From a virus: a stretch of DNA of 64,000 nt. The stretch lies in IMG/VR virus record IMGVR_UViG_3300045999_008055, one strand, 5' to 3'. The notes under the pieces were generated by a model, which was not told the DNA's origin, ran no database searches, and was given only the letters and a program-made list of their open reading frames with translations. Shown here piece by piece: positions 4,354 through 45,703 of this stretch; within the stretch, counting starts at the first letter, position 1; every line of letters starts with the position of its first letter. The position numbers were made by a program, and so were the translations under genes.

Positions 4354-4620
4354 TCAAATACTATTTTTAATTAATTCTACTTTCCAGTTCTTGTTAATCC
4401 AGCTAGTAATCATATCAGTATAATAAGTAGTAGTAATCTGCCAAAGGTCACGCTCAATCCTAATCCTATCAAAGCTATAATAGATATATTGATTAACCAA
4501 TTTGCCTGTGCCGTAATTGCTATCAAGCACATCTATTTTAATAGTAGTTAAGGTTTTAGGAATAGATACCTTGATCTTTCCTCCAACAGCATACTCGCCA
4601 ATCTTGAATGTTTTAGTCAT
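4354..4620 (-). CDS. hypothetical protein
   Basis: ORF; TTGACA-16-TATATT promoter. Confidence 0.65.
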   Translation of the reverse strand: MTKTFKIGEYAVGGKIKVSIPKTLTTIKIDVLDSNYGTGKLVNQYIYYSFDRIRIERDLWQITTTYYTDMITSWINKNWKVELIKNSI

Positions 4621-4912
4621 TCAATTAATATATGGTAAATTTATATTTTGTCAATCTCTATGATCTGTTCCAGGATAACGACTTATCAATGATGCTTTGA
4701 AGCTTTCACATTCGAATCCTGTGACATCTTTTATTGCTTGACCACCCCTACAATTCAAATTGCCAAAGCCTTTGTCCGCTTGATATTTACTTAAATCAAC
4801 ATAAATAGTATTTGGTAAAACACCATTAATAATACCATTTGGTTGCTTGTAGATTATGTCGTATAATTTATATCTCAAAATAAAAAAATATGGTTTCGGC
4901 GACACCAAAAAA

Positions 4913-5258
4913 CGCTCACAGGATATATGGCTGTAGCAGGGTTCCGCTTTGCAACAACATCCAATCTGTGATCTAATGCGGAAAACTTTCCACTAGGATT
5001 TCAGCGTCCTAACACGCATCGAGCCCCGAAAGGATTAGACTCGCCATAGTGATTCGGTTAGTTCAACCATTTTCTCTTGAGGGACAATCCACGGCTCGCC
5101 AATTACGAGGCGATGTTATTCCTTGGTTTGGGTTGGATAACCCTTTAATTAAGCCCCCATTGATATCAAAGAACATACAGGGAACGAAAGACCATCAAGA
5201 GATCAACCTCAACATATCTTTCATTACATCCTCTCGCACCCGAGAGTTTGCCCTGTAT
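4913..5258 (-). ncRNA. candidate large structured ncRNA A (two domains)
   Basis: No credible ORF; own TTGACA-17-TAATAT promoter (5288-5293); many nested helices with G-U pairs and a UUCG loop; ends in a stem plus U6. Confidence 0.6.
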
Positions 5259-5475
5259 CTATATATATTATTATTTTTTTAGAGACTTGTCAACTATCTT
5301 TTTAGTTTCTATAATAGTATTTTCTACTCCCTCGCACACGCCCTCCAAAAGATTACCGAAAAAACAGAAAATATTATTGCAATCGCCATAGTTTAAGTTC
5401 TCCTCGAATTGTTTTTTGCTCATACAACCTATTATACATCAAATACAATATTTTGTAGAACAAATATTTTTTATT

Positions 5476-5547
5476 CTGCCTAAATAGGACTCGAACCTAT
5501 AACCATACCGTTAACAGCGGTACGCTCTACCATTGAGCTATTAGGCA
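5476..5547 (-). tRNA. tRNA-Asn(GTT)
   Basis: TGCCTAA acceptor, TACCG-CTGTTAA-CGGTA anticodon arm, GGTTCGAGTCC T-arm; CCA not encoded. Confidence 0.95.
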
Positions 5548-5548
5548 A

Positions 5549-5620
5549 AAACGGCGAGGGTTTACGATACCCCCAAACGATTCGCTTATTACGGAAGCGA
5601 CCACCGATGACCTCACCATC
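5549..5620 (-). ncRNA. degenerate tRNA-like element (GTA in loop)
   Basis: Cloverleaf-like fold with 6-bp TCGCTT/AAGCGA stem, loop CCGTAAT, T-like arm GGGT-ATCGTAA-ACCC, reduced D-arm. Confidence 0.4.
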
Positions 5621-5647
5621 ACCTCACACAACAAATCTTTGTCTACT

Positions 5648-5998
5648 TTAGACCAATTCTAGTTCGATGTCAAGTTTCTTGGTTTTGCCCATCCAACTTT
5701 CGGGCATAATATGTTTGAACCAGTCTTGCATCGAAGGAATACGACCCAAATCTTCAATAACGTGCTGTTCGCCAATCCAGCGAGTAGGAATCTTTTTGCC
5801 GTTGGATAATGTGATCGTGTGACCAAATATCCTCTCACACATAAAGATGCCCTCGGCGTGATGACGCAACGCACGATGTCTAAAGTCTGCCATCATCATC
5901 TTTGATTCATCGAACCAATCGTGAATCTTCTGATAATCTTCGGGCGTTCCTCCCCATTTCTTTGCTGAAGATACAGAATGATGGTAAGGATTAGCCAT
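5648..5998 (-). CDS. DUF6915-like protein
   Basis: ANPYHHSVSSAKKWGG..DY..IHDWFD..RHRALRHH..EQHVIED pattern. Confidence 0.7.
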   Translation of the reverse strand: MANPYHHSVSSAKKWGGTPEDYQKIHDWFDESKMMMADFRHRALRHHAEGIFMCERIFGHTITLSNGKKIPTRWIGEQHVIEDLGRIPSMQDWFKHIMPESWMGKTKKLDIELELV

Positions 5999-31129: not shown

Positions 31130-31217
31130 TGGAACGAGTAGGATTCGAACCTACGGATGATATTGAACCATCGGAAGTTTAGTAAACTTCTGCTTTAGAC
31201 CACTCAGCCATCGTTCC
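31130..31217 (-). tRNA. tRNA-Ser(ACT), class II long variable arm
   Basis: GGAACGA/TCGTTCC acceptor, GAAGT-TTACTAA-ACTTC anticodon arm, long variable arm, GTAGGTTCGAATCCTAC T-arm. Confidence 0.9.
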
Positions 31218-45399: not shown

Positions 45400-45703
45400 T
45401 CTTTGATATCCAAAAGGGCTTTACCTCCAAATTTTATATATCTGAAGTTAAGTATTATCAATCCAACTTTTCTTTTGACTCCAAATTTATCACGATCTCA
45501 GCGATAAACGGGCCATCGCACTTATGGGTCAGAGGTAGCTTCGACCACTACATTCTGCGATGCCTATAGCTACATTCCCTTCAAAAGCCATATTATGTAC
45601 AAAAGAAGGTTTTAATAGTTGTCAGCCCTTTAGACATTGCTATCTCAAGGATTGATAGTTGATTTTTTGACATCAACAAACTGCTCTAATTGGAAGCTAT
45701 GTT
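45400..45703 (-). ncRNA. candidate large structured ncRNA B
   Basis: About 385-nt ORF-free gap; own TTGACA (45732-45737); local stems plus two 8-9 bp long-range complementarities; GCAA tetraloop. Confidence 0.6.

Follow-up and report, generated by a model that had tools for sequence, protein, structure and literature searches.

A segment of about 250 nt starting at position 5158, which an earlier note had singled out as a structured RNA, is predicted to be the middle and 3′ part of a longer non-coding RNA of ~355-370 nt that is conserved, structured and modular. This RNA occurs in uncultured freshwater phages, within the phage tRNA (stable-RNA) island. Its predicted transcript starts at ~5258 and includes an 84-nt junction at its 5′ end, upstream of the segment first proposed (coordinates without a locus identifier refer to the window, the whole 64,000-nt stretch of DNA that was analyzed). 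The evidence comprises a promoter consensus, the lack of a conserved ORF, the swapping of domains between relatives, its place in a tRNA island, the fact that no promoter precedes the tRNA that can follow, and covariation in its helices. We consider a stand-alone, modular and structured stable RNA of the tRNA island to be the probable explanation for these features, and by its sequence and predicted structure it belongs to a class that has not been described.

A predicted promoter-driven transcript without conserved ORFs

Every gene in the neighborhood of the RNA lies on the minus strand, and a tRNA-Asn gene (5548-5475, minus strand) is found just upstream. The RNA follows a sigma-70-type promoter, already recognized in the earlier note, in which TTGACA and TAATAT are separated by 17 nt (5293-5265, minus strand; predicted start ~5258). 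In relatives, an identical promoter arrangement is present immediately 5′ of the RNA. From the predicted start, an ORF-free transcript would extend on the minus strand to ~4906, or to 4888 if an invariant tail is counted, for a length of ~355-370 nt. The G+C content of this ~370-nt stretch is 0.46-0.48, compared with ~0.30 in the flanks and background, as expected from its first description as a GC-richer segment. The motif GGGGGC, said to come shortly after GTTCTTTGA, is present there in the RNA, and the proposed adjacency to tRNA genes extends to both sides, with tRNA-Asn upstream and, in relatives, tRNA-Asp downstream.

The segment had been described as lacking ORFs, with conservation of a 77-aa plus-strand ORF as the observation that would speak for a protein. 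We found no conserved ORF in the region, as neither the frame nor the position of open stretches is consistent among relatives. Within the 77-aa ORF, variable columns are distributed over the three codon positions as 10/9/8, with neither bias nor a third-position excess, and close relatives carry 1-2-nt indels. Searches of Pfam and PHROGs with the ORFs of the region (77 aa on the plus strand and 37 aa on the minus strand) returned no match.

Folding of the window sequence alone was no better than that of shuffled sequences (z = -0.57), and the structural support presented below is therefore comparative rather than thermodynamic. Two further features lie close to the RNA. A 50-aa ORF (5271-5423, minus strand) sits between tRNA-Asn and the RNA promoter, which its 3′ end overlaps; a related ORF in locus L004 has an NLxYGD motif in common with it. 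Between the neighboring DUF6915 gene and tRNA-Asn is a canonical short GC-rich terminator (5555-5575, minus strand), indicating that ordinary terminators of this phage look quite unlike the 3′ hairpin of the RNA.

Relatives occur in long, short and alternative forms

Neither the region nor the first 20 kb has a DNA relative among GenBank phages, and a search with an 812-aa protein of the window found nothing. The neighboring DUF6915 protein led to 57 viral-contig loci, 4 of which contain full-length homologs of the RNA (72-93% identity). Another 5 of the 57 contain a short form, with hardly any sequence between the 5′ junction and the 3′ hairpin. Metagenome contigs, scanned with a two-anchor pattern, yielded 24 additional long-form loci. 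Pooling DUF6915-linked and pattern-scan loci gave a long-form alignment of 25 distinct full-length sequences; for 20 extra long forms, the retrieval pattern itself required part of the boxA-like tract described below. A scan of viral contigs with a 15-nt pattern yielded only chance matches, none of them confirmed by BLAST, and two more viral-contig scans, with the 3′ module and with a divergent subgroup of the 5′ junction, produced no new forms. One of two matches in a genome collection (L218) proved to be a chance match within GC-rich coding sequence.

The short form lacks 5174-4991, that is, the boxA-like tract through the third junction, and its flanks are similar to those of the long form. 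Among close relatives, the middle is cleanly present or absent. A third form is found on contig JBMOHW010000241.1 (3132 bp; L219:219-439, minus strand). It has a promoter and carries GGUUCUUUC in its 5′ end; its middle is unrelated, and its 3′ module is the same, with a covarying stem base. It lies within a run of four tRNAs. Binning placed this contig, which contains sigma-70-type promoters, in a Terrimicrobiaceae MAG; its DNA probably belongs to a phage rather than to the bacterial chromosome. Domains are also swapped between long forms: in L001 and L002 the neighboring protein is 96-97% identical, yet the middle domains are of another subtype. The middle-domain subtype thus does not track neighboring-protein similarity, which suggests that modules are exchanged between phages.

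A three-way junction begins the RNA

The first 84 nt of the RNA are predicted to form a three-way junction (3WJ-1; 5258-5175, minus strand), based on RNAalifold applied to 10 sequences and on a covariance model. It is composed of P1 (5258-5252/5181-5175), P2 (5251-5226), which contains an A.G/A.A internal loop, and P3 (5222-5186), all on the minus strand, and the J3/1 sequence GUUC is conserved. In the RNAalifold structure (n = 10), both sides changed in 11 of 23 pairs. From these 10 sequences we built a covariance model, R1, which recovered more members, including a divergent subgroup across the DUF6915 gene. In a 19-sequence alignment, which had itself been fitted to the R1 model, 94.8% of cells are paired and 15 pairs changed on both sides, a number reached in 0 of 500 shuffles; slid controls were 40-57% paired. 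The P2 loop has 4-6 nt and ends in UGC (GGGUGC, GGUUGC or AUUUGC) in 18 of the 19 R1 matches, and the weakest of the aligned matches lacks P2. When five phage records were searched, R1 matched three, with one copy per matching record.

In all cases 3WJ-1 begins at the predicted +1 of a strong promoter. Members of the divergent subgroup (L025:1565-1651, L023:1547-1633, L035:2052-2126 and L024:1271-1346, all minus strand) consist of the junction alone after the promoter, with a U-run and the start codon of a small ORF within 6-10 nt downstream. The divergent junction is followed by a small ORF that is rich in lysine and has the pattern CxxC...CxCxxC, directly in three of the four loci and with one other small ORF in between in L024. 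From its sequence pattern, this ORF looks like a zinc ribbon.

A conserved single-stranded tract resembles boxA

Downstream of 3WJ-1 in the long form is a 15-nt tract, GUUCUUUGAUAUCAA (5174-5160, minus strand), that is unpaired in the consensus. We take this tract to resemble the boxA of bacterial rrn operons. A boxA is a NusB/NusE-binding antitermination signal with a length of about 8-12 nt, and the tract has one of its characteristics, namely that it is a conserved, single-stranded, U-rich stretch close to the start of a long untranslated transcript. All 5 relatives retrieved independently via the neighboring protein agree at 14 of its 15 nt. Its invariance among the 20 extra long forms is uninformative, as these were retrieved with part of the tract. 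A related tract, GGUUCUUUC, opens the distant L219 form.

The tract is a candidate boxA. It shows no sequence identity to the boxA of E. coli or lambda that could be tested against the host, and a cross-phylum boxA consensus was not found in the literature. The earlier note had also drawn attention to a boxA-like 7-mer that precedes the tmRNA. The 7-mer is indeed common to the tmRNA leader, but it occurs 26 times in the window against 19 expected, which is not an enrichment, and its sharing is therefore not evidence. In two loci (L189:1857-2123 and L192:46-312, both minus strand), an extra 6-bp hairpin lies between the 5′ junction and the boxA-like tract, an order of hairpin and then boxA that recalls rrn leaders.

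Covariation supports two further junctions

For the segment originally flagged, we counted pairs in the 25-sequence alignment and compared them with 500 shuffles and with slid controls. In this alignment, 96.8% of cells are paired, whereas shuffles reach 88.5% and slid controls 34-46% (about 40%). Of 43 pairs, 18 changed on both sides, which 0 of 500 shuffles reached. Independent minimum free energy folds agreed on one architecture for most of the 25 relatives, and most of the divergent sequences yielded the same junction. The covarying pairs for which the earlier note had called are thus present across the 25 full-length relatives, in an arrangement that departs in part from the one it had drawn.

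The second three-way junction (5159-5078, minus strand) is closed by the helix 5159-5154/5083-5078. It contains a hairpin (5143-5130) and an arm (5126-5121/5094-5089), which in turn carries the hairpin 5113-5096 (all minus strand), a helix proposed before as TCGCC/GGCGA. The arm helix (CCAAGG/CCGUGG) was misaligned by MAFFT and was assessed separately. It occurs in five different complementary versions, and complementarity is 5.5 of 6 for matched strands versus 4.5 for swapped partners. This covarying helix displaces the previously suggested GCCGTG-GATT/AATC-TATGGC pairing, which uses the 3′ strand of the arm. A possible end-to-end pseudoknot had been suggested between AACCCT in the terminal loop and AGGGTT near the 5′ end of the segment. 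Both sequences exist, but their pairing is contradicted, as AGGGTT covaries with its local partner at 5134-5130 (GGGUU/AACCC to AGGUU/AACCU) and the loop is invariant.

A linker joins the second junction to the third (5077-5052, minus strand). It is A-rich and includes an invariant 13-nt block, ACUAACCGAAUCA, that extends to 5050 and so shares 2 nt with the next helix. The loop of the hairpin 5017-5004 is a candidate pairing partner for the block, in a pairing of which one side never varies. The third junction (5051-4991, minus strand) is closed by 5051-5047,5045-5044/4997-4991 with one bulged U. Within it are an optional, variable hairpin (5042-5021, minus strand), which relatives either lack or have exchanged for another, and a 4-bp hairpin (5017-5004, minus strand) that is 100% paired, with 3 of 4 pairs changed on both sides. 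The former corresponds to the GAGTC/GGCTC hairpin of the earlier note, retained here as a dispensable stem. Two other pairings drawn in this region are incompatible with covarying helices: ATGCG/CGCAT uses the 5′ strand of the 4-bp hairpin, and TAGGA/TCCTA, which is broken in most relatives, has its 3′ half in the closing helix 5051-5044/4997-4991. Overall, roughly half of the pairings first proposed are wrong. We also dropped a pseudoknot between the loop of the hairpin 5017-5004 and CUAG, since the closing helix explains CUAG better, as well as one between that loop and the invariant block, which shows no variation.

An invariant 3′ module can be followed by a tRNA

The third junction is followed by a small hairpin, GAAAGUUUUC, and a conserved CCGCA (4990-4976 in all, hairpin 4990-4981, minus strand), which are kept in the long, short and L219 forms; this hairpin shows no covariation in the 25-sequence pair counts. 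A long hairpin follows (4971-4916, minus strand), with a 6-bp base, bulges, a 7-bp apical stem and an invariant 13-nt loop (4950-4938). It contains the terminal TCACAG/CTGTGA stem that had been proposed together with a U6 run. Six of the 7 pairs of the apical stem changed on both sides, and the base covaries in L189 and L219. Three nucleotides separate the stem from the U6 run (4912-4907), after which comes a 19-nt tail (4912-4888 with the U6, minus strand). The tail, which has ACCA inside and AUAU at its end, is invariant at all but one position in all long and short forms.

Stem and U6 are separated by the 3-nt gap, and a scan for consensus terminators does not report the site. A tRNA-Asp starts 6-25 nt past the tail in L004, L007 and four long-form loci. 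The only promoter-like sites in L004 are that of the RNA itself and one beyond tRNA-Asp. A downstream tRNA-Asp without its own promoter suggests that the hairpin-U6 signal is leaky or conditional, in which case the RNA would be released by processing. The gene downstream of the RNA differs by locus, being a conserved 85-aa ORF, tRNA-Asp or tRNA-Thr, which argues against a dedicated leader.

We considered and dropped a switch involving P1 and the arms of the 3′ hairpin, as this pairing is inconsistent across forms. The 3′ tail, the hairpin loop and the U6/A-rich linker are all invariant, and candidate pairings of the tail with the loop or with the U6/A-rich linker were likewise dropped. In L004, just past tRNA-Asp and a small ORF, another GC-richer, ORF-poor stretch follows a TTGACA promoter (L004:4095-4300, plus strand) and could represent an additional structured RNA of this island.

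A model for a stand-alone RNA

These observations can be combined in a model in which host RNA polymerase would start at the sigma-70-type promoter, producing an RNA that begins with the conserved three-way junction. The next 15 nt, predicted to be single-stranded, would probably serve as a boxA-like guard of the long untranslated transcript against premature (Rho-type) termination, and two further junction domains would fold independently. The 3′ end would be formed or protected by the long hairpin with its invariant loop, the U6 and the invariant tail. We expect this 3′ signal to be leaky, such that polymerase would run on into the next gene (tRNA-Asp in several relatives) and the RNA would then be freed by processing, as in phage tRNA clusters. 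The presumably stable product would most likely act in trans, as an RNA or as an RNA-protein scaffold.

Large structured phage RNAs found by tRNA islands, such as GOLLD, ROOL and T4 rnaC/rnaD, still have unknown roles decades on. To these, the predicted RNA adds a compact and well-supported case of ~355-370 nt whose modularity is unusually clear. Its 5′ junction is also found alone, a boxA-like tract and an exchangeable middle come next, and its invariant 3′ module can be joined to a tRNA. The natural short, long and alternative forms in close phages provide a ready-made deletion series for the function of the modules and of the tRNA island.

A possible leader acting in cis

The main alternative is a cis-acting leader or attenuator, which we regard as a serious but clearly less probable possibility. 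Here, 3WJ-1 would bind a small molecule, a protein or the polymerase and would gate read-through of the hairpin-U6 signal, either as a riboswitch or in the manner of put/nut-like processive antitermination, with a tRNA or early genes downstream. Such a role would fit the location of 3WJ-1 at +1 of a strong promoter, its conserved junction nucleotides, and the position of the hairpin-U6 signal between that promoter and a promoter-less tRNA-Asp. The spacing of 6-10 nt at which the divergent junctions abut a U-run and start codon is also like that of a 5′ UTR. In the long form the boxA-like tract comes after 3WJ-1, and the hairpin of L189 also precedes the tract.

This layout has parallels in known antitermination systems. 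Like the rrn and lambda nut elements (boxB, then boxA) and HK022 put, 3WJ-1 is a structured element right after an early promoter. The long form resembles rrn and nut further in that a conserved single-stranded U-rich tract comes next, and then a hairpin-U tract and further genes. HK022 put consists of two stem-loops downstream of an early promoter, after which polymerase reads through terminators. The position of 3WJ-1 fits that of put and, by analogy, P2 and P3 could be compared with the two stem-loops, but they are closed by P1. Unlike in rrn, nut and put, the upstream element is a closed three-way junction and not one or two simple hairpins, and it is present in a single copy in each phage record that R1 matched.

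Several observations weigh against control in cis. The 3′ module is found without 3WJ-1 in L219, and 3WJ-1 without the 3′ module in the divergent subgroup, suggesting separable units and arguing against a pair of sensor and expression platform. In the long form, ~220 nt of independently folded, covarying domains lie between the two. Furthermore, P1 and the hairpin arms do not covary, P1 being identical in L011 and L010, whose apical stems differ, and the downstream gene is not constant.

A combination of both roles would be unlikely, though less so than the alternatives that follow. The 5′ junction would then be a new polymerase-, protein- or ligand-binding element for passing the hairpin-U6, and the middle domains would be trans-acting payloads, possibly self-assembling like ROOL and GOLLD. 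If true, an RNA switch would gate expression of the tRNA island and of early genes, as a case of put- or riboswitch-like antitermination in a non-enterobacterial phage.

Improbable alternatives: an inserted middle or a diverged known family

A different possibility, which we hold to be improbable, is that the middle (5174 to ~4991) is an inserted passenger, an intron-like or mobile module in an older short RNA gene. Its clean presence or absence between similar flanks would be expected of a passenger, as would a subtype independent of neighboring-protein similarity in L001 and L002 (96-97%). However, there is no group I or group II match and no flanking repeat, and the middle consists of nested junctions without a pseudoknotted intron core. 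The boxA-like tract at its 5′ edge also recurs at the start of the unrelated L219 form.

We consider it slightly less probable again that the RNA is a diverged member of a described family, such as c-di-GMP-I (GEMM), GOLLD, ROOL, raiA, a group I intron or a tRNA-like element. A match to Rfam had been named in the earlier note as grounds for giving up an undescribed class. An Rfam 15 scan of the whole window at gathering thresholds returned only the tmRNA and two tRNAs. At E ≤ 10, only a tRNA and one chance match overlapping it were found in 4600-5700 (1.1 kb), and nothing was found in 5165-5265 (101 nt) or in L011 3615-3815 (201 nt). Thus, the RNA matches no Rfam 15 covariance model, including those of GOLLD, ROOL, raiA, OLE and HEARO, and the scans gave no match to group I or group II introns. 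ARAGORN called only the flanking tRNAs and no tRNA-like domain in the RNA.

The closest local likeness is to the c-di-GMP-I riboswitch (RF01051). Like this riboswitch, 3WJ-1 is a three-helix junction of ~85 nt at a transcript 5′ end, with the same three-helix layout and a resemblance around P2, where GGCAAAC, a stem-loop and GGAYGYAA follow one another. In c-di-GMP-I, a GNRA tetraloop on P2 docks into a receptor in P3. The P2 loop of 3WJ-1 is not GNRA, there is no fixed downstream gene, and RF01051 gives no match at E ≤ 10; a search of three whole phage records with this model (gathering threshold 35 bits) did not match the element. We therefore rejected an identity of 3WJ-1 with c-di-GMP-I.

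Phages and prophages encode ROOL and GOLLD, RNAs whose function is unknown and which often lie near tRNA islands, and GOLLD combines a conserved 3′ region with a variable 5′ region (bioRxiv 10.1101/2024.12.08.627333). The phage tRNA-island setting of the present RNA matches theirs (bioRxiv 10.1101/2024.12.08.627333). As with GOLLD and ROOL, the RNA is phage-encoded, ORF-free, multi-junction, extensively covarying and next to tRNA genes; its 3′ module is the most conserved part, its 5′ and middle parts are swappable, and a tRNA can follow directly. Unlike them, it matches neither model, is ~355-370 nt long as opposed to ~580 and 800 or more, and is predicted to consist of nested junctions with no pseudoknot demonstrated.

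The stable RNAs of T4, rnaC and rnaD (species 1 and 2), are small and of unknown function (PMC9697503). In the T4 record they adjoin phage tRNA genes, in a tRNA cluster. rnaD ends in ACCA, and the present RNA has ACCA near the end of its invariant tail. Kinship was considered on account of short motifs in common with a published probe and was rejected, with R1 scoring ≤6.9 bits on the T4 locus. The T4 RNAs are also shorter (119-139 nt), with a tRNA-like T arm in rnaC, and the present RNA has a promoter of its own. GOLLD, ROOL and T4 rnaC/rnaD are thus analogs in context only, not relatives.

Least probable of all is that the region is no RNA gene but a small protein gene or a DNA-level site, as might be supposed from its 77-aa plus-strand and 37-aa minus-strand ORFs and from a 19-nt tail after U6 that is more invariant than any helix, since those ORFs are not kept, have frame-breaking 1-2-nt indels and no codon periodicity, are without match in Pfam and PHROGs, and compensatory changes in 18 pairs are unexpected for coding sequence or DNA sites.

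Other stable RNAs and ORF-free segments of the phage

Elsewhere in the window, both ARAGORN and Rfam called a class II tRNA-Ser with the anticodon ACU (31130-31217, minus strand). An A at position 34 is unusual in a bacterial-type tRNA-Ser reading AGY. For the phage tmRNA (46000-46387, plus strand), the score is 90.5 bits and a tag of 24 residues is predicted; a TTGCCA-17-TATAAT promoter of its own ends ~30 nt upstream. Two other ORF-free segments of the phage are reported to be driven by promoters, one at 45400-45703 (minus strand) and the other ~2.2 kb before the window start. One of these two reportedly has the 5′ end AGUUCUUUCC, which is similar to the boxA-like tract.
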